A DNA stretch of 32,000 nucleotides from Candidatus Nanopusillus sp. (GTDB lineage Archaea > Nanobdellota > Nanobdellia > Nanobdellales > Nanobdellaceae), in NCBI GenBank assembly GCA_049414405.1, contig JBMSAQ010000015.1, forward strand, positions 30,001 through 62,000. Direction: 5' to 3'. Each line of letters opens with the position of its first letter. Position 1 is the first letter of the stretch. Both the position numbers and the translations under genes were made by a program. Under the pieces are notes generated by a model, which searched no databases, had not been told where the DNA came from, and saw only the letters and a program-made list of their open reading frames with translations. Below, one piece after another: positions 8,006 through 30,904 of the stretch.

Positions 8006-8857
8006 ATGGGTGGAATAGCTATATTTGCAAAAACTAATTCACATGATTATAGGATAATAAAGTTAAAAGAAGAAATAAAAAACTATAATAATATTAATAT
8101 TATTGATATAGAGAAAGACAATATATTTCCATATAATGAAAAAATATTAAACTATGACGTATATTACTTTTTCCTTGGATCAAATTTTTTATCTGATATA
8201 TACTTTCTAGCAAGATATCTTAAACAAAATGGAAAAGAAGTAATAAATACCATACACATTAAAGAACCTGTAATATCAAAAACTCTATTTTACAGTATTC
8301 TTAATAAATATGTAGAAATTCCAGAATTTATGAAAATATATTCAATAGATAACATAGAATATGTAATAAATAAAATAGGATTTCCAATAATAATAAAGCA
8401 CCAGTTTGTTCATAGAGGGGAATTCGTACATAAGATAGATAATGAAAAAGAACTATATAACTTTTTAGAAAAATATTTATTAGAGAAGAAAATAAAAATA
8501 AAACATTTAATATTTCAAAAATACATACCTTATGAGAAAGATATAAGAATAATTTTTGTGGGAAAGCCAATTGGTGCAATGGAGAGAATCAATAGAAATA
8601 GTTTTAAGGCAAATATTAGTCAGGGTGGATATGGGAGACAATACGAATTAGATGAAGAGATAGTAGATATTGGATATAGGATTATGGATAAATGTGACTT
8701 ACAAATATTTGCATTTGATCTATTATTAAAAGATGGTCAATATTATTTAATAGACTTGCATCATATATTTCAATATGAGGGATTTGATAAATATTTAAAT
8801 AGAAATGTTACAAGAGAAATATTGAATTACTTAAATGAAATTAGTAATAAAAGCTAA
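8006..8857 (+). CDS. ATP-grasp ligase of the RimK/LysX (alpha-L-glutamate ligase-like) type
   Basis: ATP-grasp signature blocks are present: PIIIKHQFVHRGEFVHKI, IFQKYIPYEKDIRIIFVG, NISQGGYG, and FAFDLLLKDGQYYLIDLH. Substrate is unknown. Confidence 0.7.
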   Translation: MGGIAIFAKTNSHDYRIIKLKEEIKNYNNINIIDIEKDNIFPYNEKILNYDVYYFFLGSNFLSDIYFLARYLKQNGKEVINTIHIKEPVISKTLFYSILNKYVEIPEFMKIYSIDNIEYVINKIGFPIIIKHQFVHRGEFVHKIDNEKELYNFLEKYLLEKKIKIKHLIFQKYIPYEKDIRIIFVGKPIGAMERINRNSFKANISQGGYGRQYELDEEIVDIGYRIMDKCDLQIFAFDLLLKDGQYYLIDLHHIFQYEGFDKYLNRNVTREILNYLNEISNKS

Positions 8858-9242
8858 AGGGCATAAATTAATAAAAGCGACACATAAAAGCACCTTAGAA
8901 ATTACTAAAGACAATTATCTAACAGAAAGAGGAGATTGCATAATCGGTATAAATGCGAACTACTCTGTAAAAGATTTACCAGAGGATCTTAAAGATCATA
9001 TATTAAATGAAGGAAAAATAAAGATTGTAATTAAGATTGATGATTTAATAGACAGTATAATTGCTTATGGTTCGAGAAATTTATTATTAACAAATGATAG
9101 AAGTATTGTTATAAGAAAAAGTAATTATATTGATGATAGAACCTTAGCAATAAACTCAAATAAAAGTGCTACTGATATTGATAAGAAACTAATTGAAAAA
9201 TTAAGGTGTGAAAAAGATATGGAATTCATTATATATTACTGA
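8835..9242 (+). CDS. DUF371-like archaeal protein
   Basis: KAKGHKLIKATHKSTLEITKDNYLTERGDCIIGINA resembles, from memory, the DUF371 N-terminal signature (GHxNIxATHxTTxExTKDxxLTxRGDCIIG). It overlaps the upstream gene by 23 nt. Confidence 0.55.
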   Translation: MKLVIKAKGHKLIKATHKSTLEITKDNYLTERGDCIIGINANYSVKDLPEDLKDHILNEGKIKIVIKIDDLIDSIIAYGSRNLLLTNDRSIVIRKSNYIDDRTLAINSNKSATDIDKKLIEKLRCEKDMEFIIYY

Positions 9243-9248
9243 AAAACA

Positions 9249-9256
9249 TTTATAAA
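9249..9256 (+). promoter_or_regulatory. Candidate TATA box (TTTATAAA) for the 9280-20713 operon
   Basis: The octamer centre is 27.5 nt upstream of the ATG at 9280. It is preceded by purine-rich GAAAAACA, which is BRE-like. This implies a leaderless or near-leaderless mRNA. Confidence 0.45.
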
Positions 9257-9279
9257 GAATAAAATATTTATCCATAATT

Positions 9280-10038
9280 ATGAAAAGAAGGGGTATAGAC
9301 ATGGCTGTACAGTTGATATTCGTAATAATAATAATGTTGGTAGTAGCAGTTATTGTAATTAGGCTATTTCAGCAACAATCATCAAATATTAGCCAAATAT
9401 CAAATACACAAATACAACAGGCAGTTGCTAATTGTTTAAACTATTGTCAAGATCCAGTAACATTCTGTACAAGATATGAAAACATTGGAAATGGAATTGT
9501 ACAAGTAAGTCCTGGGTATTATGTTTGTTCAAATGCAGTTCCATGTAGTGTAGTATTACAATTATATGGAGGTCCCTCTAGTCAATGTCACTATCAAGGA
9601 TATCCAATAACACCGTTGGCATGTATGTATTTAACATGTCAACATTACATTGATAGATTATATTATACTCCGGTACAAGCAACAAGTTATGTATTTGGAA
9701 ATTATTCTTCTACTACATCATTTAATGTAGAAACTGGACAAGCGACGATTTACATTTCTTCTCCATCCCAAATATTATACCCAGGTCCAGCACAATGTTC
9801 TGCACAATTACCAACATGGATTACAAACCAAGTATTTATTGCACTGTTAAAAGTTCTTAATTACTATAATAGTGCACATGGATGTAATTTAAACTTAGTA
9901 GTCAGTAATGGAATATTAGTAGTAACGGGAAATTGTGCAGCATTGGGTATAAATAATAATAATGGTATGCCATTATGCCAATTCTTGATGAGAGTACCAT
10001 ATAATCAGTTAATTAACACACCAGCCACAACAAGTTAA
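9280..10038 (+). CDS. Secreted or anchored cysteine-rich protein with a prepilin-like N-terminus (operon gene 1)
   Basis: MKRRG-IDMAVQLIFVIIIMLVVAVIVI is a basic leader followed by a hydrophobic helix. The ectodomain has 12 Cys and several N-x-S/T sequons. I recognise no homolog. Confidence 0.6.
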   Translation: MKRRGIDMAVQLIFVIIIMLVVAVIVIRLFQQQSSNISQISNTQIQQAVANCLNYCQDPVTFCTRYENIGNGIVQVSPGYYVCSNAVPCSVVLQLYGGPSSQCHYQGYPITPLACMYLTCQHYIDRLYYTPVQATSYVFGNYSSTTSFNVETGQATIYISSPSQILYPGPAQCSAQLPTWITNQVFIALLKVLNYYNSAHGCNLNLVVSNGILVVTGNCAALGINNNNGMPLCQFLMRVPYNQLINTPATTS

Positions 10039-10043
10039 AGGTA

Positions 10044-12014
10044 ATGAATTTTTTTGAACGTTTTTACAATAATTTTAATTTAATAAAATTAAAAGCTCCC
10101 AATCCTATATATAAAAAATATGCATTTCATTTATGGTTAAATAGATTAAATACTAATCCCGATAATATATTTTCTTCTGTAATAACTCTAATAATATTAT
10201 CTATAATCATATATCTTATTTTAAGTTTTGTAAGCTTTCAATTAGCTTTTTCTTTATTAATATCTTTACTAATATTATCATTCTATTTCGCATATTATCC
10301 AATATTCTATACACAAATTGTTAGAATACAGGTAACGTCAGAAATTGTATGGATAATATTATATTTATCTTTATATCTAAAGAGAAATCCCAATCTAGAA
10401 AATGGAATAAAATATGTAGCATATTATATGAAAGGTTATATTGCAACAGACTTTAAATCATTATTATATAATTTAGAAACAAATAAGTTTAAGGATATTG
10501 AATCAGCACTAGAATATTATCAAAGAAGATGGTTTTATTTAAGTCCAGATTTTGTATATGCAATGACACATATTGTAAATATTAAATATAAAACGTCTAT
10601 TGATGATATAAATAAATTATTAGATAGAATATTGGGATGGGTATTAAAGAAATCTTTAGAAAAATCCCAACTATATGTAGATGCTCTGAAAGAACCAGCA
10701 ACAGTTATCATATCTTTCTTAGTAATGATGCCTATAGTCAGTTTGATGATGTTACCAATAATATCTGTGTTTTTGTTAAATACTGTAAGTTTTTATTTCA
10801 TAGCATTTTCATATATAATAATTCTACCTGTCATTACATTCTTAATAATTCAAAATTTTCTATCGAAAAATCCATTTGCATTTGCTGTTCCAGATTTATC
10901 ATTAGCAAAGGATTTACCAAAACCTGGAAAATTTAAATTAGGAAATAAAGAAATTCCGGCAATAATAATTTCAATAATATTGGGATCAATTGCAATTATG
11001 GGAATTTATCATTTAATTTCTTTAGCTATAAAAATTGCTCTTATCCCACAAGGATTTTTAAGTGATTATTTAAATATAGTTTACCAAGATAGAGCATTAA
11101 TATATTCGGTTTTAACTTTAACATTACCCCTGGGATTGGGTTTAGGTATAGGATCTTATTATTATCTGACATCTTTCCAAAAAGTTAAAAAAATATATGA
11201 AATTGAAGAAATAGAAAATGAGTTTCCAATTGTTGTATATGAATTTGCATCACTATTAGAAGATGGTTATCCGTTTGAAATAGTAATTGAAAAAACCTAT
11301 TATAATTATAAGATAATAAAATCTTCCGGAGTTTTGGAAAACTTCTTAAAAACAACACTATATAATTTAAGAAGGGGATATGATTTAAATACATCTATAT
11401 TTAATCCAAAAATTGGTTCATTAAATTTATATCCATCAAAGTTAGTAAGAGAGTCTATGCAACTTTTAGTCACTTCTGCATCAAAGGGTCCTGAAGCTTT
11501 ATCAAAAATTGCATATAATGTATCAACAAATTTAGAAAATGTAAACAATATAAGATATAATGTAAGAAAAATATTAAATGAAATAATTGGATTAATAGAT
11601 ATGACATCAAGAAATCTAGTACCATTAATTTCTGCAATGGTTACAGTTTTTAATAATGGTATAGTTTCAATGCTTTTTGCACTTGCATATTTCTTTCAAT
11701 TGATAAGCCAATCTTTTGGTCTGGGGGGTGGATCTAATTTATTCAATTTTATTGTAACCACATTTAATCTATATAACCTAATACCACCAACATTTTTTGT
11801 AGCAATAATAGGTATATTTTTTATAGAATATGTAATAATAACATCATATATGAGTGCTGGAATAAGATATGGCTTTGATAGTACAATGACTTCATATTAT
11901 ATAGGTAGAAATCTTCTGTTTGGAACAATATTTTATGTAACATTTTCAATAATAGGAATATTAGTAGTATACACAATGTTCGGCCCATATCTGCCAACAA
12001 ATATACAACTATGA
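10044..12014 (+). CDS. Polytopic membrane protein, candidate FlaJ/TadC/PilC-like (T2SS-F-like) platform protein (operon gene 2)
   Basis: About 10 predicted TM helices are arranged as two repeats, each a soluble helical domain of about 100-150 aa followed by TM helices (aa ~113-217 and ~379-525). The second domain begins EFPIVVYEFASLLEDGYPFEIVIEK, which resembles the T2SS-F domain. Assigned by pattern only. Confidence 0.45.
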   Translation: MNFFERFYNNFNLIKLKAPNPIYKKYAFHLWLNRLNTNPDNIFSSVITLIILSIIIYLILSFVSFQLAFSLLISLLILSFYFAYYPIFYTQIVRIQVTSEIVWIILYLSLYLKRNPNLENGIKYVAYYMKGYIATDFKSLLYNLETNKFKDIESALEYYQRRWFYLSPDFVYAMTHIVNIKYKTSIDDINKLLDRILGWVLKKSLEKSQLYVDALKEPATVIISFLVMMPIVSLMMLPIISVFLLNTVSFYFIAFSYIIILPVITFLIIQNFLSKNPFAFAVPDLSLAKDLPKPGKFKLGNKEIPAIIISIILGSIAIMGIYHLISLAIKIALIPQGFLSDYLNIVYQDRALIYSVLTLTLPLGLGLGIGSYYYLTSFQKVKKIYEIEEIENEFPIVVYEFASLLEDGYPFEIVIEKTYYNYKIIKSSGVLENFLKTTLYNLRRGYDLNTSIFNPKIGSLNLYPSKLVRESMQLLVTSASKGPEALSKIAYNVSTNLENVNNIRYNVRKILNEIIGLIDMTSRNLVPLISAMVTVFNNGIVSMLFALAYFFQLISQSFGLGGGSNLFNFIVTTFNLYNLIPPTFFVAIIGIFFIEYVIITSYMSAGIRYGFDSTMTSYYIGRNLLFGTIFYVTFSIIGILVVYTMFGPYLPTNIQL

Positions 12015-12295
12015 AACTTCAAAATTCAATATATTGGATTACAATAACCTTTATATTAATTGTAGCTGCTAGTCTATTTTCTTTTTATTATATTTATAAC
12101 ATAAAAAATAGTTTAGATGGAGAAAATATACAGACTATTAGCTGTCAACAATTAAAAAATCTATACAATAAGAGTTTTCGAGAAATAATCGATATTAAAG
12201 TATTTCTTAGTGAAAATTGTACAATAAATGGAATAACAATACCTTCCGGCTATAGAATTATATATATTTATAACGGAAGTATTCATTATATATGA
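12011..12295 (+). CDS. Small pilin-like protein (operon gene 3)
   Basis: MKLQ-NSIYWITITFILIVAASLFSF N-terminus, 2 Cys, and ATGA overlaps at both ends. Confidence 0.6.
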   Translation: MKLQNSIYWITITFILIVAASLFSFYYIYNIKNSLDGENIQTISCQQLKNLYNKSFREIIDIKVFLSENCTINGITIPSGYRIIYIYNGSIHYI

Positions 12296-12771
12296 AGAAC
12301 GATATAGCAATAGATACTATATTTATAATAATAATAGCGATAATATCTGCTGTAGCTGTATTGAGTATTATATATACAAAATTCTTTAGTAATTCTCAAG
12401 CATATTATTGTCAAACATTAATATCACAAGGTGGCTTTTCCCCATCATGCAAAGAATATTATCCTTCTGCAATAAATGTTATATACTCAAATGAGAGTAT
12501 TGATACAATTTATTCAAGTATAGTGGGATTAATATTAAATTGCTACAACAATAATGTAAATACAAATAAGTTATTTGATATATGTTATGATGTTTATATA
12601 AATAGGAATATTGTCTTAAATTCGGCAACATTAATTCAATATGTACAAAATTATACTAAATTTAATCCAAATAAAATTATATTCCGTTTAAATAATAGTG
12701 AAGGGAAGATATACCCATACAACAGCATATTTATAATATACAACAATAGTTATATTATAATATGGCAATGA
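12292..12771 (+). CDS. Small pilin-like protein (operon gene 4)
   Basis: MKND-IAIDTIFIIIIAIISAVAVL N-terminus, 4 Cys, and an ATGA overlap with the upstream gene. Confidence 0.6.
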   Translation: MKNDIAIDTIFIIIIAIISAVAVLSIIYTKFFSNSQAYYCQTLISQGGFSPSCKEYYPSAINVIYSNESIDTIYSSIVGLILNCYNNNVNTNKLFDICYDVYINRNIVLNSATLIQYVQNYTKFNPNKIIFRLNNSEGKIYPYNSIFIIYNNSYIIIWQ

Positions 12772-13175
12772 GAATTCAAGAGCTTCCGATTAATTATACT
12801 TTTTTAATCTTTATTGGAATAATTGTTACATTAACAATTATAGGAATAATATTTGTATTAAGAGGAAACATATCTTCTTACATAAATAACATAATGCCAA
12901 AATACAATACTACACAGACTGTAGTAGAAACAAATGTAAATTCAATGACAACTGTCGCAATGAATGTAGTATCATGTTATTATAAAAAAGCCCAAGGTCT
13001 CTGTTATTTGATTCATTATCAAGGATCACCATTTACATGTCAAGATTTAATAAATAGAGTAAATAGCATAGATCCAAATGTTGTAATGCAAAATTGTAAT
13101 TATAATATAAACCCTGGAAAGTATATATTAATTTATTCGGCAGGAAATTATGTCTACATTAATATTCAAGGATAG
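12762..13175 (+). CDS. Small N-terminally anchored, pilin-like protein (operon gene 5); the likely true start is the ATG at 12768
   Basis: N-terminal hydrophobic helix (YTFLIFIGIIVTLTIIGIIFVL) and 4 Cys. The second Met at 12768 forms an ATGA overlap with the upstream stop. Confidence 0.55.
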   Translation: MAMRIQELPINYTFLIFIGIIVTLTIIGIIFVLRGNISSYINNIMPKYNTTQTVVETNVNSMTTVAMNVVSCYYKKAQGLCYLIHYQGSPFTCQDLINRVNSIDPNVVMQNCNYNINPGKYILIYSAGNYVYINIQG

Positions 13176-13177
13176 AG

Positions 13178-13618
13178 ATGGAGAAGTGGTTTTGGATAAT
13201 TATAACAATTGTTGCTTTTGGTTTATCTTTATATTTATATTTTAAATTTGTAGGCATAAATAATGAGACTCAATTATTATATAAAAATATATCTTCATGT
13301 CAAAATTTATATACAACAGTTGAAAGAGCGTGCTATTCCAATAACGGAACAGAATTTTATATTACTATTGAAATAAATAAATATCTAGATTATATATATA
13401 GTAATGGTAATTTACTAAGTTGTTACATATATGACAGATATTATAATTATACAGTACCTTGTAATGTAATAATAAATACAACTAATAATATGATTCAATA
13501 TTATACTTCTGGATTATTTTATGAATTGTCACGTGGAAGTCCCAATCAAAAAATACCTTTGCTTGTTAAAAAAACTTCCCCAACAGATGTAACAATTTAT
13601 ATAGAAAAACCAGGTTAA
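13178..13618 (+). CDS. Small N-terminally anchored protein (operon gene 6)
   Basis: MEKWFWIIITIVAFGLSLYLYF N-terminal helix, 4 Cys, and a 2-nt gap from the upstream gene. Confidence 0.55.
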   Translation: MEKWFWIIITIVAFGLSLYLYFKFVGINNETQLLYKNISSCQNLYTTVERACYSNNGTEFYITIEINKYLDYIYSNGNLLSCYIYDRYYNYTVPCNVIINTTNNMIQYYTSGLFYELSRGSPNQKIPLLVKKTSPTDVTIYIEKPG

Positions 13619-13654
13619 AAATTTTAAAAATTTTTTAGATATTAATAGATCATA

Positions 13655-15157
13655 ATGAAAAAAAATCAGTTAAATTTACTCTCAGTAGCAATAATGTTAT
13701 TAATCGTATCATTATCTTTCTTAATTTATTATCAATACTCTACAAATGTTAAAAGGGAACAAGAAAAATTTATATTTGAAATTTTTGTCAATAATTTACA
13801 AAATTTACAGGATACGATAAGTAATATGCAAGGTACATATTATATAAAAGTTGATATACCAAGCGGGATTATATTATATTCGAGAGATGACGAATTAATA
13901 ATCCAATATAATAATAATAATTATACAATTAATTTTCAAAATAAATCTGTAATTTTATACAATAATGGTCAAAATGTAAGTTTTCTATATCCAAATAATT
14001 ATATATATTTGATTAGTACAAATAATATTGTTTTTATTTCTGCAGATTTTAATGATACAATTTTCTTATTTAACCGATATTTACCTAATGGAACTATTAT
14101 AATTATAAATCCAGATAATAATCAAAATAATAACAATAATCAAAATCAGAATAATAATCAAACTAATCAAACTAATAACACCAATCAAACAAATAATACT
14201 ATTGACCCAAATAGTAGATGTTTAGTTAAATATACTGGACAACCAAAATTTTTCTGGGGTAATGTAAATGGAAATAATTATTTACCTCCAATAGGTGATC
14301 AAGGAGTTTGTGGAAGTTGTTGGGCATTTGCATCTGCAAATGGGATTGCTGCAGTTTATATGATAAGAAATAACAAACCTAACGAAGGATTAACACTATC
14401 TGCCGCATACATGGCAATAAAGTGCAATAGAGGTTATCCAAATACTCCAAGATATTGTGAGTATAATATGGGTTGTAATGGTGGTTGGCCATATTTAGGT
14501 ATATTATATACATCTCAATATGGTATACCAGCAGATCCGGGACGGGCACATTATAGTTCTACTTTAAAAAGATGCAATACAGGTGCTACTAGTTATCCTG
14601 GTAATGTATGTGGTTTTGATTATAACGGACCTACTTCACCAATGTATTATTCACACAGAGTTATGGAATTAGTTCAAAGAGAAAAACCCTTATCAAGTCC
14701 AGAAATAATTCAATATTTGCTATGCTATGGACCATTAACTGTTGGTGGCTTTATGGCTGGACGGGGGGGATCTAACCCAAACAAATATCCTTCAAATTTT
14801 GTAGAAACCACAGGTCATGCTATGCTGTTGGTTGGATATGATACACAGTCCCAACTATGTCAAGAAGTATATGGAACTCCAAAATGTTGGATAATTGCAA
14901 ATTCTTGGGGAACTATAACAGGATGCTTAGCTTTTACTTCAGATGGTAGAATGCGCATGATAACTCGTAGTAAAAGTGAGTGCTATAAATATTATTCAAA
15001 TTATCAAGCTTGCAGCGCTGCAATGGGAGCACCTTGTGGAGGGATTTATTGGTCACAAAACGGATATCTATATGTACCATTTGAACAGTCACCATTTGGC
15101 ATATCATTTCCCAAGTTTACAATAGTAGCAATACAAAATGTTACTCTCGCAAAATAG
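13655..15157 (+). CDS. N-terminally anchored papain-family (MEROPS C1A-like) cysteine protease (operon gene 7)
   Basis: The complete catalytic signature is present. GDQGVCGSCWAFAS supplies the oxyanion Gln and the nucleophile Cys222 (codon 14318-14320). TGHAMLLVGYD supplies His388 (codon 14816-14818). WIIANSWG supplies the Asn. The N-terminus has a MKKNQ leader plus TM helix, then a domain of about 120 aa, then an N/Q/T linker. Confidence 0.85.
   Translation: MKKNQLNLLSVAIMLLIVSLSFLIYYQYSTNVKREQEKFIFEIFVNNLQNLQDTISNMQGTYYIKVDIPSGIILYSRDDELIIQYNNNNYTINFQNKSVILYNNGQNVSFLYPNNYIYLISTNNIVFISADFNDTIFLFNRYLPNGTIIIINPDNNQNNNNNQNQNNNQTNQTNNTNQTNNTIDPNSRCLVKYTGQPKFFWGNVNGNNYLPPIGDQGVCGSCWAFASANGIAAVYMIRNNKPNEGLTLSAAYMAIKCNRGYPNTPRYCEYNMGCNGGWPYLGILYTSQYGIPADPGRAHYSSTLKRCNTGATSYPGNVCGFDYNGPTSPMYYSHRVMELVQREKPLSSPEIIQYLLCYGPLTVGGFMAGRGGSNPNKYPSNFVETTGHAMLLVGYDTQSQLCQEVYGTPKCWIIANSWGTITGCLAFTSDGRMRMITRSKSECYKYYSNYQACSAAMGAPCGGIYWSQNGYLYVPFEQSPFGISFPKFTIVAIQNVTLAK
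14156..14200 (+). repeat. Five consecutive in-frame N-x-T codon triplets (NQT NQT NNT NQT NNT), a 9-nt periodic microrepeat inside an Asn/Gln-rich linker (14117-14200)
   Basis: Read directly from the sequence: AATCAAACT AATCAAACT AATAACACC AATCAAACA AATAATACT. Confidence 0.85.
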
Positions 15158-16001
15158 AAATTTATTAGCACCTATTATAATTATTTTTATAATTTTTTTG
15201 TATATTGTATATTCTATGAATATTATATATTCTATGAAGAATCCAATAGCAGTTTATTGTGAATATGGAGGAGGAACTTATTATACAAATGATACTGGTT
15301 CTTATTGTATTATAAATAATACATATTTTGATGCTCTACAATATTATGAAAATAATGTACCTCCAGAATATTCCTTTTGTACCCATCATGGATTAATATA
15401 TGTAAATAGCAGTTATTGTAAATATCCAAATGGTACATTAGTTAGTCCATATCTATTAATTCCCCCATCCGCATATCAAGATGTAATTATACCAGAGGAG
15501 AATCTTACATTGTGTGATAATCTGTTAGATTGTTCAAATACTCCATGGTATTATCCACCATGTTCTAATCAAATTTACCCTTGTTTTGATCCTCCATATA
15601 TACCACCTTCTTACTTAGCAGGTAATGATTCTTATCAGCAACTATTGTCATACTACCGTAATTTTTATGGCTGTGGCTATTGTCCAGAGAGTTTATCTTT
15701 CCAAGGTAACTGGTTCAGATGTCCGTACAATTATTCATTAAATCAATTATATCAAGAATTTCTACAAAAATGTCCACCACCAAGTATTGTTTATATTTCT
15801 TGTACTGGCGTATTTGAATGTATAAATCAAACTGAAATGAATTTAACAAATAATCTTACAAATAATAATCAACAATTAATTTATCCACAACCAAATATAA
15901 GTACTAATAACAACAATAACGTTAATTTGATTTTACCAACAGCAATGGTTATAATTATAGTAATAATAGGCCTATTTATGTTATTATATTATCTAAAATG
16001 A
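15138..16001 (+). CDS. Cys/Pro-rich surface protein with a DUF333-like N-terminal motif and TM helices at both ends (operon gene 8)
   Basis: KNPIAVYCEYGGGTYYTNDTGSYCIINNTYFDALQYY resembles the DUF333 pattern NPAxxYCxxxGG...G..C...W. It has 14 Cys and a C-terminal anchor (ILPTAMVIIIVIIGLFMLLYYLK). It overlaps the protease gene by 20 nt. Confidence 0.5.
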   Translation: MLLSQNRNLLAPIIIIFIIFLYIVYSMNIIYSMKNPIAVYCEYGGGTYYTNDTGSYCIINNTYFDALQYYENNVPPEYSFCTHHGLIYVNSSYCKYPNGTLVSPYLLIPPSAYQDVIIPEENLTLCDNLLDCSNTPWYYPPCSNQIYPCFDPPYIPPSYLAGNDSYQQLLSYYRNFYGCGYCPESLSFQGNWFRCPYNYSLNQLYQEFLQKCPPPSIVYISCTGVFECINQTEMNLTNNLTNNNQQLIYPQPNISTNNNNNVNLILPTAMVIIIVIIGLFMLLYYLK

Positions 16002-17626
16002 AAAATCAAATAAATACTATAACCTTTGTTATTATAATTTCAATAATATCATTGTCAGTTCTATTATATATTTTAATATCAAGTGACTACAATCAAAAAA
16101 CAATGCAAACATATAATGTAGAAAATCAATACACACTAACAATCCAGAATAGTATTGTTTTATTATCATATATTGATGATAATAAAGTTAACTTATCCTA
16201 TGCATTTTTATTATCTTATTTTTCATCTTCTGGAAATGATACATACTGCATAAATCGAAATATATGTACGAATATATCACAAACCATAACAAATTACTTT
16301 AATAGTATATACGGAAATAGATGGAACTTTACAATATATTTTGTACCACCAGTAACTGGCTGGATCGTTCAGATGTTTGTAGTGGCCGGTAATATAAATA
16401 ATTGGGATCCATGTTCAATGAGACCTCCACCAGATCAAAATGGCAAACAATGGTATGAATGGGATTATACGTATTTCTTTACAAATAATTATGTACAGAA
16501 TATTGATATACCAGTAAGACTGACTATATATGGAGCTGGATGGGTTAATGCAACAGCACCCTTCCATCAAACATTATCAACAAATTCTTGGGGATTACAA
16601 TCATTTTATCCACAACAATCACAAGCAATAGCTATACAATTAGGATATTGTGAACCTCTATCAAGAATATTTCCAAATTATAATTTTAATGAAGCTTCTG
16701 TATATTGTCCAAATAGTGAATGGCATTTATTTCCAAATTTTTTGGGTGTAGGTGGTGTACCAGCCCAACCAGTATCTAACTTACCAAATTTCTTTTCCGG
16801 ATTCTTATGCATATATACAGGATCTTGTCCGGTAACTAACAATCAATATTTAACCTCCACACCTTATTATTATCAAGGTCCTCCCGTTTATAAAACTGCC
16901 ACTGACATAAATAGACTAGCAGATTCTATAATCCCAAGAGAATATTTAGATGCAGCATGCCAACAAATGTTTGGTACAAGATATACGGGTAATTCTCTTT
17001 GTGGGGGTGGTCAAGTTTTAGTTGTAGGATCTTTTTACAGAGGTGTAGCAAATATACCACCACATTGTCAACAAATATTCATAGATTACCCATGGCATGA
17101 AACAATAGCTTTATATATATCCTACATAAATAAAAATGGACAACCAGATTATGTATTTTTAGCAGCAGATCCTTTGTGTGAATATAAAATAAATGGGAGA
17201 ATAATAAGATGTCCAACTGGTGTATATAATGACATACAAAATATAAACGGAATTATTATTGGAAAAGAATGTCCTTTAGTTTATTTAGGTGGTATTAATA
17301 CATATTCTCAAGGATTTTATAGATTTAATATTACTAAATGGGTAATAAATAATAGGGATCCAAATACAAATCAATTTATAATTTCTGCAGTATATTATGA
17401 TCCACATGCTGGATCAAATGGTGTTGCAATGGCGAGAGCATATTGTATTACTGATACAGGAAACAAAGAAGAATTAAACGCTTATATTTACCAAGGTAGT
17501 CAAAATAGTGTAAGTTTAGGATATCCAATACCACCAAATACAAACATATATGTACATTACATATATTTGCCAGTAAATATGCCTTTTCTAGGCGGATATC
17601 TTGTCGCTAAATTAACAGTATGGTAA
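15998..17626 (+). CDS. Large N-terminally anchored (prepilin-like MKNQ leader) secreted protein of unknown fold (operon gene 9)
   Basis: MKNQ-INTITFVIIISIISLSVLLYILI N-terminus, 14 Cys, and an ATGA overlap with the upstream gene. Confidence 0.6.
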   Translation: MKNQINTITFVIIISIISLSVLLYILISSDYNQKTMQTYNVENQYTLTIQNSIVLLSYIDDNKVNLSYAFLLSYFSSSGNDTYCINRNICTNISQTITNYFNSIYGNRWNFTIYFVPPVTGWIVQMFVVAGNINNWDPCSMRPPPDQNGKQWYEWDYTYFFTNNYVQNIDIPVRLTIYGAGWVNATAPFHQTLSTNSWGLQSFYPQQSQAIAIQLGYCEPLSRIFPNYNFNEASVYCPNSEWHLFPNFLGVGGVPAQPVSNLPNFFSGFLCIYTGSCPVTNNQYLTSTPYYYQGPPVYKTATDINRLADSIIPREYLDAACQQMFGTRYTGNSLCGGGQVLVVGSFYRGVANIPPHCQQIFIDYPWHETIALYISYINKNGQPDYVFLAADPLCEYKINGRIIRCPTGVYNDIQNINGIIIGKECPLVYLGGINTYSQGFYRFNITKWVINNRDPNTNQFIISAVYYDPHAGSNGVAMARAYCITDTGNKEELNAYIYQGSQNSVSLGYPIPPNTNIYVHYIYLPVNMPFLGGYLVAKLTVW

Positions 17627-18825
17627 AAAAACAAGATAAAATTTTATTTCTTTTATATCTATTAATATTCTTATTTTTTACTTTTGATAGTAAATTTGAT
17701 ATAAATGTAATTATCTTTGGTACAATATACCTATTCTTATTATCTTTTATATTAAAAAATTCAAAGAATACTTCTTTGATATATAAGTCGGTATTCTTAC
17801 TTATACCAATTATAATTTTTGGAACTCTCTATTATCAAGATTGGCCCTTATTAGCACGTTTATCGCTTGGTCTTGCAATAAATTATTGGCTATTTTACTT
17901 TATAGCATTTGCTCTAGGATATTATTTATTTGAAAATAATTTTTATATTTCAAAAAAATCTTTGATATTTTATGTACTTTCTTTAGTTTTATTTATAATA
18001 TTATTTTTCCTTGAAATAGTAATCAACGTTATAACCATGGATTTAGAAGTAGCAACAGGACCTATAGTCGGTTCGGTCATTAACTTTGCATTATCAAATT
18101 TTTATACTTTCAAAATATTATATTCAACTTTGTTTATTGTATTTGCTATATTTCTATTTCTAGTTATACGTTTTAATAGAAATGAAATACTTATAGTAAG
18201 AACAAAAATATTCAAGAAGTTGTCAGAAATTTATAAATATAAAAAGTATATATTTTTATCAATATTTTTTATTATAATAATACAACTTATTATTGCTATA
18301 TATGGATTATCATTCTATAGTAATCTAGCTTCAGAAAGTTTAATTGTAAAATATCAAATCACTGTATATAAAGCTCTTATACTTTTATCAATATTTGAAT
18401 TTATTATTTATTTTTTAATTTATAAGAGCATGAAAAACGATCATTTCACAAATTATTTCTTATTATTTACCATGGTTTTAATAATATTCTTTGGTGCATT
18501 ATTCACATCGTACAAAGATTTTGCTTCTTATGCCATACATACAAGATATCTTATGGCTGTGATATTTTTCTTCATGGGAATGCATTATAAACTATTTAGT
18601 AATGTTAAAAAACCAATTAAAAAAGCCATTGGTATTACAATTGGAATATTACTTCTAATACAAGTTATAATTGGAGAACTGCTCGAATTTGCAGTATATG
18701 GAGGTCCCCCATTAAGTATATTAGCTATACCAAATATAATGAAAATACTTGGCATAATACATGGACCAGTGGTAACAATACTCATATTAACACTTATATA
18801 TCTTCATGTTAAGTTAGAAATATGA
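17620..18825 (+). CDS. Polytopic integral membrane protein of unknown function (operon gene 10)
   Basis: About 10-12 hydrophobic helices across 401 aa, with no recognisable catalytic motif. The start overlaps the upstream stop (ATGGTAA). Confidence 0.6.
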   Translation: MVKKQDKILFLLYLLIFLFFTFDSKFDINVIIFGTIYLFLLSFILKNSKNTSLIYKSVFLLIPIIIFGTLYYQDWPLLARLSLGLAINYWLFYFIAFALGYYLFENNFYISKKSLIFYVLSLVLFIILFFLEIVINVITMDLEVATGPIVGSVINFALSNFYTFKILYSTLFIVFAIFLFLVIRFNRNEILIVRTKIFKKLSEIYKYKKYIFLSIFFIIIIQLIIAIYGLSFYSNLASESLIVKYQITVYKALILLSIFEFIIYFLIYKSMKNDHFTNYFLLFTMVLIIFFGALFTSYKDFASYAIHTRYLMAVIFFFMGMHYKLFSNVKKPIKKAIGITIGILLLIQVIIGELLEFAVYGGPPLSILAIPNIMKILGIIHGPVVTILILTLIYLHVKLEI

Positions 18826-20057
18826 GAAATCAAACAGAAAGTATTTATGTAGTTCTATTTTTAACAGTTTCTATATTGATAATTCTTCTATCTTTTTATG
18901 CGCTAACATATAGTTACAATCAGAATGTTGTTTTTGGTAGATTTACATCTTTATCGACTTTATCAAACTACCTTTTAGGATATTTACAAACAGCATTAAC
19001 ACAAGAAGGTTATGCAAAATCTTATGTAGCAGGAACAAGTGGTTGGGGAAAAGAAAACTGGGCCTCTTTTCCTCCTCAGTGCATATTACCACAACCATGT
19101 GAAAATGCAATTCAATATTACAATAATTTGATAACTTCTGGATTTACAAGCTTAATAAGTTATGGAGAACAATATTTATTTGCATATAGGTACTATCATC
19201 CGTATAATATATCTTTCAATTTCTCAAACAATTATCGAGCTGGTCTTCTAGGAACCTGTGATGACGTTGTTTCTGGAAGATATAATTATAGTTTTCCCAT
19301 TTATGTTCAGGGAGTATATATAAATATTACCGGACCTTCTTCTGGTTCAATAATCCCCTATGCATCAACATCAAATATAACGAACAATCCAGCATTTTAT
19401 TTATATAATTTAGCATATCAATTTTCTTTAGAAGAATTTCCAGAATGTTCCTTTCAAGATTGTGTAAATACATTATTTAATAGCGGTCCAACCGACAACT
19501 GTGCAAGAAGATTTGAACAATTCTCAAATAATCCAGATATTAAATGTAATGAAACAATAATCCCACATGAATGTGTAGATATTCCGTTATGTAAGATATG
19601 TTTATATCCCAGAGCAATTGCCTGTAGAGTAATATTAAAATGTTCTGACAATCGATATAATGTATATTTTAATGGGAATGCATATCCGCAATCCATAGCT
19701 ATTACTTCAATAGTTTTTTATGAAAATGTAACAAACAAGTATTATCTAAATTGTATATATAAATGTGTTGGAATATACAATGAAACAAATAAGACAGCGA
19801 TATCGAAAAGTTGCACATTACAAGATCAACAATATTCATGTTCCCCAATATATGGATGTGGTGATGTAAGCATAAGTAGGAAAGATTCAAAAATAATATT
19901 TACATTCCCATATTATTATTCAATTCCAGTTGAATGTTATATGTGTATAATCGGTGGAGAAGAATGTCCAGTATGTTTGCCCGGACAATGTCCTAACAAC
20001 CCAACATGCCCAGAAACAATACCATTCCCAGAGGAATGTATAGAAGATTATCTCTAA
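18822..20057 (+). CDS. Large cysteine-rich (24 Cys) N-terminally anchored secreted protein (operon gene 11)
   Basis: MRNQ-TESIYVVLFLTVSILIILLSF N-terminus and a C-terminal Cys cluster (ECYMCIIGGEECPVCLPGQCPNNPTCPETIPFPEEC). ATGA overlap with the upstream gene. Confidence 0.6.
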   Translation: MRNQTESIYVVLFLTVSILIILLSFYALTYSYNQNVVFGRFTSLSTLSNYLLGYLQTALTQEGYAKSYVAGTSGWGKENWASFPPQCILPQPCENAIQYYNNLITSGFTSLISYGEQYLFAYRYYHPYNISFNFSNNYRAGLLGTCDDVVSGRYNYSFPIYVQGVYINITGPSSGSIIPYASTSNITNNPAFYLYNLAYQFSLEEFPECSFQDCVNTLFNSGPTDNCARRFEQFSNNPDIKCNETIIPHECVDIPLCKICLYPRAIACRVILKCSDNRYNVYFNGNAYPQSIAITSIVFYENVTNKYYLNCIYKCVGIYNETNKTAISKSCTLQDQQYSCSPIYGCGDVSISRKDSKIIFTFPYYYSIPVECYMCIIGGEECPVCLPGQCPNNPTCPETIPFPEECIEDYL

Positions 20058-20065
20058 TATGAAAG

Positions 20066-20713
20066 ATGAAAGGACAATTTTCTATAGTATTTATAACAAT
20101 ATTAACTGTATTATTTTTATTAGGTATGGTGCTTTTATTAGCAATATTTTCTAGCATTAATTTAACAAATTATAAAGAGCAAACTTCTTTTTCATATCAA
20201 CAAAAAATAATATACAGCCTATTTTCTCCAAATTGTATAGGATATCCAAATTATCCAATATACTTTACAACAATGGAAAAAATAAGACAATTCAATCAAA
20301 CATATTATAATATGCTTCCAAATTGTACAATATTTCCTTATACATTTAGAGCAGAAATTGGTAATTATAGTTTTGGAATTATAAATTTTAATGGAAATTG
20401 TAATACGCATACGTATCCAATTTCAGTATATTATTCTTTAGATTATATCAAATTAACCATATGTAAAAATTATTATTCAGACTTTTATTATTTCTTATAT
20501 AGTTTTTGTTTGAGTGATAAAAATATTTCAAATCAAACTTTTGTATTTCTATTTCCAACAAATTTATCTGGAAATATTACATGTACAGAAAATACAAATG
20601 GAAATATTATATGTAATTACATACCATGTTATTCAGTAAATAATATTACATTTTATCAACTTGTAACAGTATATGTAAAAAGAATTAATCAAACACATTT
20701 CATGATTGCATAG
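20066..20713 (+). CDS. Pilin-like protein with a canonical class III signal (operon gene 12)
   Basis: MKG-QFSIVFITILTVLFLLGMVLLLAIF matches the archaeal prepilin pattern [KR]-G followed by Q and a hydrophobic stretch. It has 8 Cys and many N-x-S/T sequons. Confidence 0.65.
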   Translation: MKGQFSIVFITILTVLFLLGMVLLLAIFSSINLTNYKEQTSFSYQQKIIYSLFSPNCIGYPNYPIYFTTMEKIRQFNQTYYNMLPNCTIFPYTFRAEIGNYSFGIINFNGNCNTHTYPISVYYSLDYIKLTICKNYYSDFYYFLYSFCLSDKNISNQTFVFLFPTNLSGNITCTENTNGNIICNYIPCYSVNNITFYQLVTVYVKRINQTHFMIA

Positions 20714-21536
20714 ATTTATTAAAGATTGCTATTGATTCAATAACAATTTTTGCAGCTAAATTATCACATATTTCATTTGAAAATAATTCTACTAAATCAA
20801 AACCAATTAAATTGATATTTTTTAATTCTTTTATAATCTTAAAATAATGATATGGTCTAATTCCAATGCCTTCTAACCAATGTCCACATCCTGTATCAAA
20901 TACGTCTATATCAACCGAAATATATAAATTTTTATTTTCTAATATATTTGCTATCTCCTCTGAAATTTCTTTTATATTATCCCAAACATCCAAAGGATTA
21001 TAATACTTTATCCCCCATTCCCCTATTATATTCTTTTCTTCAAATGACAAATTAGATATACCAACAAAGATGATTTTTTCAGGTTCAATATAATTTTCCT
21101 TTATTAAATGATAAATAAAACTTTGATAATTTGAATATGGATCAGGATGAATATCTGGGTGAGCATCGAAATACAATAAGTAAAAATCTCCCCAGTTCTC
21201 TTTAACAATTTTTAATATTGGATATGTTATTGAATGGTCCCCCCCTAAAAATACATATTTTTTATCTTTTCTATATATTTTTTTAATCTCCTTATATATT
21301 TTTTCATATAATTTATCCAGATCTTTTATATCTTCCAACTCTATATCGCCATAATCATATATATCTTCCACATTTATTTTTCCAAATATTGGAGAAAATA
21401 TTCTGTAAGATGCATTCCTAATAGATTCGGGCCCTTCGATATAATTTTTTACATGTGATAAACTACCAATTTCTGATGGAATTCCAACAATTATCCATTT
21501 CGATTTATTATATTCACCTTTAGCATGTGCAAACAT
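20700..21536 (-). CDS. speB: Ureohydrolase family protein (agmatinase/arginase-like)
   Basis: The Mn-ligand motifs GGDHSITYP, FDAHPDIHPD and SVDIDVFD are all present. The loop after the third motif (DTGCGHWLEGIG) diverges from the usual DPxxAPGxG. Confidence 0.75.
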   Translation of the reverse strand: MFAHAKGEYNKSKWIIVGIPSEIGSLSHVKNYIEGPESIRNASYRIFSPIFGKINVEDIYDYGDIELEDIKDLDKLYEKIYKEIKKIYRKDKKYVFLGGDHSITYPILKIVKENWGDFYLLYFDAHPDIHPDPYSNYQSFIYHLIKENYIEPEKIIFVGISNLSFEEKNIIGEWGIKYYNPLDVWDNIKEISEEIANILENKNLYISVDIDVFDTGCGHWLEGIGIRPYHYFKIIKELKNINLIGFDLVELFSNEICDNLAAKIVIESIAIFNKSMQS

Positions 21537-21569
21537 TAAACTAAAATAATTATCATACTTATATTTTTA

Positions 21570-22184
21570 ATGGATAAAAGAAAGATGATTGATGAATTAA
21601 ATAATCAGATATCAAAATGTACTAGATGTCCCTTATATAAATATAAAACAAATTATGTTCCTGGAGACGGTAATCCAAATTCAAGAATATTATTTATAGG
21701 AGAAGCACCGGGTAGGGAAGAGGATAAACAAGGAAAACCATTCGTTGGAAAAGCTGGACAAGTATTGAATGAAAATATAAAAAATATATTAAACATAGAT
21801 AGAGGTGATGTGTATATAATCAATGTTGTTAAATGTAGACCTCCAGAAAATAGAGAACCAAAAGAAGAAGAAATAAAAGCATGTTCTTTTTGGTTAGAAA
21901 AGCAATTAGAAATAATTCAGCCAGAAATAATAATAACTTTAGGTCATTATTCAACAAAATGGATTTTCGATTATTTCAAATTAAAATTTTTTTCAATAAC
22001 AAAATTAAGGGGAAAAATATTTAAAGTAAATAAATGGGGAAAAAATATCACAATAATACCAACATTGCACCCAGCATCTACATTATATCATAAAGAATGG
22101 AGAGAATATTTTGATCAAGATTTTAAAACAATAAAAGAAATATTAAATAAAGATAAAAAGGAAGGAATATTAAAATTTATATGA
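21570..22184 (+). CDS. udg: Uracil-DNA glycosylase, family 4 (Fe-S type)
   Basis: CTRCPL...[47 protein letters not shown], and LHPAS. Confidence 0.9.
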
Positions 22185-23479: not shown

Positions 23480-23770
23480 ATGAACGATATTGTCGCAATA
23501 ACTTATGGTTTATCATTCTTAGTAGGATATTTATCAGCAGATTATATAATTAAAAAATTTTCGCCAGAATTATTTATTGAAATTAAAACACAGACAAAAA
23601 AATATAGGACAAAAATCCATCATGTATATTTATCAATAATCGGGATGTTAACATATTTATATGAATTATATGTATTAACATCTTTGTTTCTCGGTGCTGC
23701 AATTCATGATGCAATATTAGAAATAAGAAAGAAGTTAAAAAAATTAGATTATATTAAGCAAAATAAATAA
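23480..23770 (+). CDS. Small membrane protein (2-3 TM helices), unknown function
   Basis: 96-aa ORF with hydrophobic segments (IVAITYGLSFLVGYL, VYLSIIGMLTYLYELYVLTSLFLGAAI). Its 3' end overlaps the convergent surface-protein gene by 27 nt. Confidence 0.45.
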   Translation: MNDIVAITYGLSFLVGYLSADYIIKKFSPELFIEIKTQTKKYRTKIHHVYLSIIGMLTYLYELYVLTSLFLGAAIHDAILEIRKKLKKLDYIKQNK

Positions 23771-29938: not shown

Positions 29939-30904
29939 ATGTTTGAATATATAAAAATAGATAGAAGAATAATATATTATTTAATAATTGTAGGTTTTTT
30001 CCTGTCTTTTAATCATTGGGATAATTTATTTATTGGATTGAGTAATTTATTTTTCTCAATAATCTATACAATAATTTCATATTTTATATTTTTATTTGTA
30101 TTTAATTTAGTTTCATCATTTTATGGTTTATATATTTATCTAGATAATGTAATTGCAGAATTAAAAATATCATTTTATAAAAAGGAATCTTATACATTTT
30201 TTTATTATCTGCTAATTATTTTGGAAATAATTTTGTTTTTTATATTTAGACATAACTTATTTTTATACGTCATTATATCTATTTTTGTAATATTGTTCTT
30301 TTATAATTATATAAAACAACTAAAAATAAAGAGTTCAAAGAGTGAACAACTAAATTTTACATATATAAAGAGACATAATCTAAGTTATATAATTACAATT
30401 ATAGTATCAATACTTACACTGGGATTGTTTGTTCCAGTAGTATTTTCCATGAAACCAATAGTAATAGAATATAAAAGACTTGGAAGAAGTAAAAATATAG
30501 AAGTAAGAAATGATGAATTATTAAGGATATTTCTACTTTCTATATTATTATTATGGATAATATATTCATCAATAAAATATATATCACATTATTCAACACT
30601 ATTATATGGTTTTGTTTATTATTTCTTTAATTTCTTATTCTTCTTTACATATATATCAATAATACCAATAGGAATATTATTGTCCCCATATTTATCAATT
30701 AGAAGGGGATATGTATATTCCAATAAATTTATTGGAGATATATTAATATTATCAAATACACCATTTTATATTGCATCTATTGTAACTATTGCTCTATTAC
30801 CAATGTTTTCAATAATATTTACTCCATTAGAAGTAATACTATTTTCTCTAGCTATATTCTCTATAATATGGATAAGGAAGCAATTTGATGTCCTAACAAA
30901 ATGA
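29939..30904 (+). CDS. Polytopic integral membrane protein, unknown function
   Basis: 321 aa with about 8 hydrophobic helices. No recognisable motifs. Confidence 0.55.

Follow-up and report, generated by a model that had tools for sequence, protein, structure and literature searches.

The described systems that seem to come closest to the locus considered here are the type IV filament (TFF) systems of archaea: it may be likened most to the Epd locus of Methanococcus maripaludis, with its minor pilins and its glutamine at position +1, combined with the principle of the Sulfolobales bindosome. The locus is an operon of twelve genes, g1 to g12, found in a 32,000-nucleotide stretch of Candidatus Nanopusillus sp. 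(assembly GCA_049414405.1, contig JBMSAQ010000015.1, positions 30,001 to 62,000 of the forward strand), henceforth the window, to which all coordinates refer. Nanopusillaceae (Nanoarchaeota, DPANN) live as obligate ectosymbionts on hosts of the Sulfolobales and Acidilobus types, and the operon is a promising candidate for the machinery by which they make contact with these hosts. On balance, and with modest assurance, we read it as the platform and subunit set of a TFF system resembling type IV pili (T4P), the ATPase of which would come from another locus.

The Epd locus (archaeal TFF system 1, clade 1) is an 11-gene single transcript, with platform genes of the TadC type, several minor pilins and class III proteins that carry adhesin or sugar-binding domains; its very short leaders precede an essential Gln at +1. 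All this recalls the present operon. Unlike the latter, it has its own ATPase and a large A24 peptidase, EppA, with Gly or Ala at position -1, it contains no fusion of a protease with a pilin, and its platform belongs to another arCOG. The bindosome (BasEF) likewise carries functional, non-filament proteins on pilin-type N-termini that need a TFF base machinery, and there too the genes for cargo and machinery may sit at separate loci. Its cargo, however, consists of binding proteins of ATP-binding cassette (ABC) transporters, basE (ATPase) and basF (platform) are adjacent, and processing is carried out by PibD. A similar design exists in bacterial modular type IV pilins, such as PilB and PilC of Streptococcus sanguinis, where a linker joins a functional domain to a pilin module and the filament displays it, but with von Willebrand factor A (vWA) and lectin domains as cargo and with signals of the form G↓F/M-xxxE (the arrow marks cleavage) handled by PilD.

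The halobacterial 4F T4P system pairs an arCOG01818 ATPase with a TadC of arCOG01814, the very arCOG of the g2 ortholog, and nanoarchaea too have a 4F-type ATPase with a second arCOG01814 TadC. By contrast, none of the 4F pilin arCOGs turned up in nanoarchaea (Makarova 2016), and the 4F pilins are unrelated in sequence to the subunits of the operon as far as the comparison reached. Clade 1 T4P loci of methanogens house transglutaminase-like surface peptidases (Makarova 2016), hence a papain-fold cysteine peptidase inside a T4P locus, as here; these enzymes are not of the C1A type, and no fusion to a pilin-like N-terminus has been reported for them. That Nanoarchaeota have T4P systems is already in the literature, as is the arCOG of the g2 ortholog. 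In the literature that can be searched, we did not find a description of the operon, of its pilin-like set, of the fusion between protease and pilin-like module, of the swapping of carriers or of the relaxed rule at position -1 discussed below. The initial annotation of the window would have been refuted by an ordinary pilus locus of identical content that was already annotated; none was found.

The twelve open reading frames (ORFs), all on the plus strand, fill positions 9280-20713. From g1 to g12 the successive gaps are 5, -4, -4, -10, 2, 36, -20, -4, -7, -4 and 8 nt, with ATGA start/stop overlaps at 12011, 12292, 15998 and 18822; recomputing the junctions thus gave the same coupled arrangement, with gaps from -20 to +36 nt, as had been described at the outset. 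A TATA-box-like element, TTTATAAA (9249-9256, plus strand), lies 24 nt 5' of the g1 ATG in the 37-nt gap that follows a DUF371 gene, beginning 7 nt past the stop codon of the latter. Because the box is so near the ATG, its position fits a promoter for a leaderless or near-leaderless mRNA. The octamer is not over-represented in the window (8 observed against 10.3 expected). The candidate proposed in the initial annotation nevertheless fares well, as a TATA-like box is present at -31 to -24 in all 13 orthologous loci, those with diverged flanks included.

The platform protein, g2 (656 aa, 10044-12014, plus strand), has no cysteine and comprises two repeats, each a helical bundle followed by transmembrane (TM) helices. 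Taken by itself it has no match in Pfam, even at E <= 0.1, nor any in NCBIfam or among the sequences of the Protein Data Bank (PDB). Its relatives are more telling. In the homology search its orthologs show 55-94% identity, and beyond them g2 matches proteins from DPANN archaea that are 630-720 aa long and 20-29% identical to it (E = 1.9e-64 to 3e-9). Seven of 17 members of the family match Pfam T2SSF (PF00482, curated cut-off 25.2 bits): among homologs matching g2 at E = 1.9e-64 to 2.4e-44, four, P0010, P0013, P0014 and P0015, which align with g2 at E = 5.7e-59 to 1.5e-47, score 36.6, 26.5, 31 and 27.1 bits, respectively, and the T2SSF matches in homologs fall in repeat 1 (about residues 154-280) and repeat 2 (about 433-570). 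An AlphaFold2 model of g2, built from an alignment of 17 family members (pLDDT 85, pTM 0.81), places helical bundles at 118-182 and 411-477, with long TM helices after each. Foldseek returned nothing significant for this model from the PDB, the match of highest probability being the PilC model 3jc8 (probability 0.60, seventh by E-value). Because transitive homology and the two-repeat architecture point the same way, we accept g2 as a putative, very divergent platform of the TadC/FlaJ superfamily, in keeping with what the initial annotation had proposed for the 656-aa protein; membership rests on the homologs that pass the T2SSF threshold. Published tables file its orthologs, Nps_00520 of N. 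acidilobi and Nst1_638, in arCOG01814 with the annotation TadC, and a T4P survey labels this arCOG 'Pilus assembly protein TadC, subclade 4F'. g2 is as well conserved as RNA polymerase subunits, with 91-97% identity among Nanopusillus orthologs and 55% across the deepest split. Its closest homolog outside Nanopusillaceae (locus L022) is a TadC standing by itself, flanked by neither ATPase nor pilin genes.

Next to the platform stand the N-termini of the other products, which were compared using orthologs from 13 loci. The initial annotation had credited ten products with a basic leader followed by a hydrophobic helix. The ten N-terminal helices are there, and the basic leader is clear in only eight products, g6 having none and g8 beginning with a Sec-type signal. 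g1 (252 aa, 9280-10038, plus strand) has a canonical N-terminus of the class III type, MKRRG↓IDMAVQLIFVIII, and a 12-Cys ectodomain. Its orthologs follow the pattern M[KRG][KR]R[GSA]↓[IVL][DE][MI]A[VI][QE]L, continued by a hydrophobic run, and the KR[GSA]↓ class III site is kept in 13 of 13; g1 is a candidate for the major subunit. A different rule governs g3, g5, g7, g9, g11 and g12: a Lys/Arg leader of 2-5 residues, a near-invariant Gln and some 20 hydrophobic residues, the residue before the Gln being N, S, G, A, L, E, Y or I. M[KR]xQ is retained by 12 of 13 g3 orthologs, Gln4 and Glu6 are invariant in those of g11, and those of g5, which starts with MAMRIQELP in the window, begin MKNQEMP or MKSQEMP. 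Among 48 ORFs of at least 60 aa that begin with ATG, M[KR]xQ followed by a hydrophobic segment is found in seven, all within the operon: the six pilin-like genes and g10, the Gln of which is not retained by its orthologs. The hydrophobic segments begin at residues 1-8 in g1, g3-g7, g9, g11 and g12, and the N-terminal motifs hold over the 13 loci at overall identities as low as 35-55%. In M. maripaludis, substrates of EppA are cut at RAQI, KGQV, KGQL and KGQI, and Gln at +1 is required (PMC4371748). As far as sequence can tell, the Gln layout of the six families matches that of EppA-type Gln+1 prepilins with a degenerate residue at -1. The term 'pilin-like' is used here for this N-terminal pattern together with genomic association.

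Two small products depart from the rule. g4 (159 aa, 12292-12771, plus strand; 4 Cys) begins with MKNDIAIDT, and has an acidic residue five positions past its putative mature N-terminus. g6 (146 aa, 13178-13618, plus strand; 4 Cys) opens directly on its N-terminal TM helix with MEKWFW, lacks a basic leader and starts roughly where the leaders of other products would be cut, while its ortholog in locus L007 begins with MRNQVEKFLW. The remaining pilin-like products, all encoded on the plus strand, are g3 (94 aa, 12011-12295; MKLQ, 2 Cys), g5 (137 aa, 12762-13175; 4 Cys), g9 (542 aa, 15998-17626; MKNQ, with a 14-Cys ectodomain), g11 (411 aa, 18822-20057; MRNQTE, with a 24-Cys ectodomain) and g12 (215 aa, 20066-20713; MKGQFS, 8 Cys and 10 N-glycosylation sequons), to which the protease g7 must be added. 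The Cys counts of the exported products are even (2, 4, 4, 4, 8, 12, 14, 14 and 24), with g7 at 15, that is 14 plus the catalytic residue, and both polytopic proteins, g2 and g10, at zero; this fits disulfide-bonded ectodomains. N-glycosylation sequons amount to 2-5 per 100 aa in the ectodomains versus 0.2-0.3 in the membrane proteins. Pfam and PDB profile searches gave no match for g1, g9 and g11, so that the cysteine-rich domains of the 542-aa and 411-aa products remain, as had been remarked from the beginning, outside any recognised family. Paralogy within the operon is weak by hhalign (g7-g9 82%, g9-g11 79%, g4-g5 73%), and the likeness of the g7, g9 and g11 profiles lies in their N-terminal 70-100 residues.

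The product of g7 (500 aa, 13655-15157, plus strand) joins an N-module of the pilin-like kind (MKKNQ) through a linker to a C1A domain of the papain family (PF00112, E = 3e-21, 76.8 bits against a cut-off of 20.7). Aligned with DPP1 and the cathepsins, the motifs CGSCWAF at 219, GHAM at 387 and NSWG at 416 bring Cys219, His387 and Asn416 into register; the triad is complete, and the intact protease announced in the initial annotation is borne out. Ahead of the catalytic domain, 190 residues comprise the TM helix, a module about 130 aa long and a low-complexity linker rich in Asn and Gln, and no I29-type propeptide family was matched in Pfam. In YN1 and KM4331-08 the g7 N-module is a free-standing gene of 141-143 aa (141 aa in YN1, at 15785-16210 of locus L019). 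In YN1 the C1 protease is fused instead to the g6 module, via a middle domain and a Pro/Ser linker, in a protein of 579 aa (L019, 13201-14940). In KM4331-08 the C1 domain is absent, and the g6-like gene encodes 256 aa without protease (L006/L016, 13201-13971). Because the protease domain switches carrier between the g7 N-module and the g6 module, the cargo is, by this comparison of sequences, modular and exchangeable between pilin-like carriers. g8 (287 aa, 15138-16001, plus strand) is not pilin-like: it starts with a Sec-like signal, continues with a domain rich in Cys and Pro (14 Cys) and ends in a TM anchor at 259-287. It had been called DUF333-like, which we do not retain, since its match to PF03891 covers 22 residues and scores 17.3 bits where the threshold is 25. 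Genes of the g8 type are duplicated in YN1 and KM4331-08.

A check of synteny in related genomes, as advised in the initial annotation, came out in favour of the block. Its order and its flanks (the RNA polymerase operon, RimK and DUF371 upstream, arginase downstream) are kept in 13 Nanopusillaceae loci, including N. acidilobi 7A, Nanobsidianus Nst1 and YN1, and the block is also present in hot-spring metagenome contigs. Within Nanopusillus, identity drops to 57-60% for g7, 62-64% for g10, 69-74% for g9 and 72-74% for g11, as against 91-97% for g2; the ectodomains evolve 2-5 times faster than g2. One close relative, RSNS12 (L013), is a mosaic with respect to the window: g4-g12 are 92-96% identical, except g7 (81%), g8 (86%) and g10 (90%), while g1-g3 are 80-91% identical. 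The other close species have 57-87% identity to the window over g4-g12. Because of this mosaic, sequence comparison suggests two haplotypes of a variable surface module, with exchange or recombination between lineages. A high density of non-synonymous single-nucleotide polymorphisms was reported in hypothetical surface proteins of Nanoarchaeota and in a FlaJ/TadC homolog, and T4P roles in host specificity were proposed (Jarett et al., 2018). An origin of the block from a mobile element or a virus was ruled out by base composition and by the core-chromosome flanks, namely the RNA polymerase operon, the RimK-DUF371 pair and arginase, in all relatives.

Homologous platforms in two Aenigmatarchaeota/Micrarchaeota loci (L003 and L004) put the operon in a wider frame. 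Aligned along about 95% of g2, they are 26-28% identical to it (E about 1e-59), and are followed, as g2 is, by some ten coupled genes on the same strand, coding for proteins with short basic leaders and hydrophobic N-termini, some of them 350-819 aa long. In contrast to the operon, the platform gene there overlaps with a T2SSE ATPase gene at the 3' end of the latter, the leaders are canonical class III ones (MKG↓ or KKG↓), and no C1 protease is present. Profile comparison of the operon subunits with these prepilins detected nothing beyond the N-terminal helices (best probability 47%). Because these loci keep ATPase, TadC and KG↓ prepilins together, the operon of Nanopusillaceae looks derived from a more widespread DPANN ATPase-TadC-prepilin system, with its linkage to the ATPase lost and position -1 relaxed. 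The ATPase of L003 (6283-10032, 1249 aa) contains an intein with a LAGLIDADG endonuclease, and such inteins interrupt several other members of the same ATPase family. Five conserved genes of 130-236 aa run divergently from the ATPase-TadC pair, on the minus strand (L003, 3383-6224; L004, 4821-7703); three of the five are paralogs with a hydrophobic segment (..FNFLFPFLLT..) after about 20 residues, and the set has no counterpart in the operon of Nanopusillaceae.

By definition, a complete archaeal TFF locus encodes ATPase, platform, pilin and class III peptidase together; here the ATPase and the peptidase are missing from the locus in all 13 genomes, where platform and pilin-like genes alone are found, and no ATPase of the T2SSE/VirB11/FlaI type lies within 10 kb of g2 at any of the 13 Nanopusillaceae loci. 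A homology search started from the Aenigmatarchaeota partner ATPase returned, among the 120 matches listed, mostly Aenigmarchaeota proteins and none named Nanopusillus. The initial annotation had set the locus apart from ordinary archaeal pilus or archaellum loci by the absence of ATPase and peptidase, and had asked what the rest of the genome holds. For the ATPase, the published N. acidilobi tables give an answer (Wurch 2016, Supplementary Data 1): five secretion ATPases of the VirB11/FlaI family are encoded, all outside the operon. Nps_00925 is accompanied by FlaH; Nps_01175 is an orphan; Nps_02250 (arCOG01818), detected in the proteome, adjoins a second arCOG01814 TadC; Nps_03100 is paired with one TadC and Nps_03260 with two TadC genes. 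The same tables show flaJ (Nps_02340) alone amid ribosomal protein genes, unlinked from flaI. For Nst1, three clade 2 ATPases, one of the archaellum clade and one of clade 4 were listed (Makarova 2016), and three FlaI paralogs were counted by Podar et al. (2013). Because flaI and flaJ are unlinked and the ATPases scattered, unlinkage is a general habit of the N. acidilobi genome. The locus without ATPase is thus probably a case of gene dispersal, with a motor encoded elsewhere, rather than an ATPase-free machine, and the lack of ATPase and peptidase genes at the locus does not by itself argue for a machine of another kind.

Several observations weigh against our reading and must be set beside the above. 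Foldseek found no match of the g2 model to the PDB at E <= 0.001. No pilin or class III model of Pfam or NCBIfam matched any product, the best sub-threshold matches of pilin type being to TIGR04205 and GspG (E = 0.09). In the six Gln families, N, S, L, Y, E or I before the Gln is far commoner than Gly or Ala, and characterised A24 peptidases are not known to accept such residues at -1. g10 has no invariant Asp. Pfam scans of the 32-kb window, covering the twelve products of the operon, 19 ORFs of the flanks and a 96-aa ORF (23480-23770), found neither A24 peptidase nor T2SSE ATPase nor KaiC/FlaH, LonB being the sole ATPase, in agreement with the absences (FlaI/PilB, FlaH, PibD/FlaK) noted from the start. 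Beyond the window, N. acidilobi has no annotated A24 peptidase, while its host has one (Wurch 2016, Supplementary Data 1), and Makarova 2016 found no such enzyme in two nanoarchaea. Finally, the N. acidilobi proteome yielded no protein from the range Nps_00465 to Nps_00525, a weak negative, as that dataset consists of about 200 mostly soluble proteins with few membrane proteins. To be sure, the nanoarchaeal lineage makes archaella despite having no recognised A24 peptidase: the peptidase gap is a real problem for the whole lineage, not just for this locus.

The polytopic protein g10 (401 aa, 17620-18825, plus strand), a lineage-specific orphan with about 11 TM helices, calls for attention here. 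An alignment of 12 orthologs displays H307-T-R309, G-x-H322, G-E353-x-x-E356, H381-G and H396 as conserved, with no invariant Asp or Cys. Invariant His residues come in pairs, 15 positions apart, one pair on each of two predicted TM helices of the C-terminal third (H307/H322 and H381/H396), and the invariant R309, E353 and E356 lie close by. As an A24 prepilin peptidase g10 is ruled out, on the lack of an invariant Asp and of a GxGD motif in the 12 orthologs and of a Pfam match. The pattern of His, Arg and Glu suggests, from the alignment, a metal-binding or heme-binding protein, or else an intramembrane enzyme of the glutamate/histidine sort. A profile search of 1.84 billion representatives retrieved only 7 clusters, all of its own family, and its AlphaFold2 model is poor (pLDDT 53). 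A paralog (28-31% identity; in locus L018 at 20641-21711) occupies the place of a 13th gene after g12 in N. acidilobi, RHS.bin.5, KM4331-08 and YN1; the window has no such gene, and g12 is the last of its operon. Two further proteins tried as peptidase candidates, a 321-aa protein encoded at 29939-30904 and an extra 356-aa protein of N. acidilobi, have no Pfam match at E <= 5.

If the operon does supply the platform and subunits of a filament system, its working might be as follows. Leaders would be removed at the cytoplasmic face of the membrane, and the hydrophobic N-termini would then be extracted and polymerised on g2 by an ATPase of the VirB11/FlaI type, for which the orthologs of N. acidilobi Nps_01175 or Nps_02250 are candidates. 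The product would be a short pilus or a pseudopilus, with g1 as its main subunit and the small pilin-like K/R-x-Q proteins as minor, priming or tip subunits. The large modular subunits (the g7 protease, g9 and g11) would be shown at the cell surface or on the filament, where they might attach to the protein envelope of the host archaeon or cleave it, and g8, Sec-dependent and held by its C-terminal anchor, would be an accessory protein together with the polytopic g10. The platform, the class-III-like N-termini and the ectodomains lend partial support to the surface machine derived from type IV pili that had been proposed initially; leader cleavage, polymerisation into a filament, the identity of the ATPase and contact with a partner are the steps that we infer. 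A fuller version makes the operon the missing filament subunit set of nanoarchaea, complete with modular-pilin enzymes, an ATPase encoded in trans, a host-contact apparatus belonging to the attachment organelle or the 15-nm appendage discussed below, and a leader-removing enzyme outside the A24 family, for which g10 would be a candidate; such an enzyme is proposed because the lineage has no recognisable prepilin peptidase. Taken as a whole, this version is quite improbable.

What else could the twelve genes be? The N-termini might be plain signal anchors that are never cleaved, tethering co-regulated, disulfide-rich surface proteins (a protease, adhesins and the small subunits of an envelope complex) at the membrane, with g2 as a scaffold or an insertase-like protein, no filament and no need for an ATPase. 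The degenerate -1 position and the leaderless g6 would be natural in such a case, as would the lack of a known A24 peptidase in the lineage, the 13 loci devoid of ATPase within 10 kb of g2, the lone TadC in L022 and the silence of pilin models. A plain anchor would however have no use for a Gln that six paralogous families keep nearly invariant directly behind leaders of differing length, nor does it explain why g2 is conserved at the level of RNA polymerase and has homologs in full ATPase-TadC-prepilin loci; g1 moreover displays a textbook KR[GSA]↓ site, and the unlinkage of genes is general, as flaI and flaJ illustrate. We therefore regard uncleaved anchors as unlikely, if by no means far-fetched. 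An assimilation to the type II secretion system (T2SS) meets with greater difficulties. One platform, many small pilin-like genes and enzymes do resemble a T2SS gene set, in which the small pilin-like proteins would form a pseudopilus pushing enzymes released from their anchors through the S-layer. The enzymes carry pilin-like N-termini themselves, though, and hence are not separate Sec or Tat substrates; no archaeal T2SS is described in the TFF surveys consulted, and neither a secretin nor an outer membrane is known in these archaea. Such a device strikes us as very improbable.

A last alternative, more specific, keeps the TFF machinery and gives it a particular product. Cryo-electron tomography of YN1 and Nanobdella aerobiophila disclosed an attachment organelle made of a cone, a portal of about 20 nm and an intercellular filament (PMC11420986, PMC11104419). 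The operon could build part of this organelle, or a 15-nm appendage also seen in these relatives, the TFF machinery extruding a filament that penetrates the host while the protease opens its S-layer. YN1 has the same operon at the same place (L001/L019), the components of the organelle are unassigned (PMC11420986; PMC11104419), and rapidly evolving ectodomains with two haplotypes among close relatives are what would be expected of host-facing proteins. Yet there is no direct link, the cone and the intercellular filament are far larger than filaments of the T4P type (a preprint on YN4 uses the same argument of size against T4P genes as the source of nanotubes), and KM4331-08 lacks the protease domain. 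A part in the organelle or the appendage is, in our opinion, quite improbable.

The surroundings of the operon deserve a few words. The window has a G+C content of about 27%, and its housekeeping genes, among them split rpoA and rpoB, rpoH, S24e, LonB and TFB, are of archaeal type. The 401-aa product, g10, is 100% identical to a protein from a metagenome-derived genome of Candidatus Nanopusillus sp. The RimK-type ATP-grasp gene and the DUF371 gene (8006-9242), on the same strand as the operon, overlap by 23 nt, and the pair stands immediately 5' of the operon in every relative. At the other end, the 3' ends of g12 and of a convergent gene of the arginase family share 14 nt (20700-20713), and because of this overlap there is no space for an intergenic terminator after g12. 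Further on, a 1422-aa ORF (23744-28012, minus strand) has a Sec-like signal and 25 Cys and matches nothing in Pfam; its synteny points to Nps_00425 of the N. acidilobi table, where the annotation reads 'S-layer domain' (arCOG02079). By the same synteny, the 321-aa polytopic membrane protein already mentioned (29939-30904, plus strand) corresponds to Nps_00415, an uncharacterised protein with 9 TM helices.

Nanopusillaceae are among the few DPANN ectosymbionts in cultivation, and the molecules with which they attach to their hosts are unidentified. The operon provides concrete, conserved candidate subunits grouped about a TadC paralog, and N. acidilobi 7A and YN1, both of them cultivated systems, carry it. 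The case also carries a lesson for genome surveys, as TFF searches that insist on an ATPase in cis would overlook systems whose genomes are scrambled and reduced. If our reading is confirmed, Gln+1 signals tolerant of almost any residue at -1 would imply either that the enzyme processing them is unusual or that they are not processed, and the bindosome idea, with enzymes borne on pilin N-termini, would be extended to a protease.

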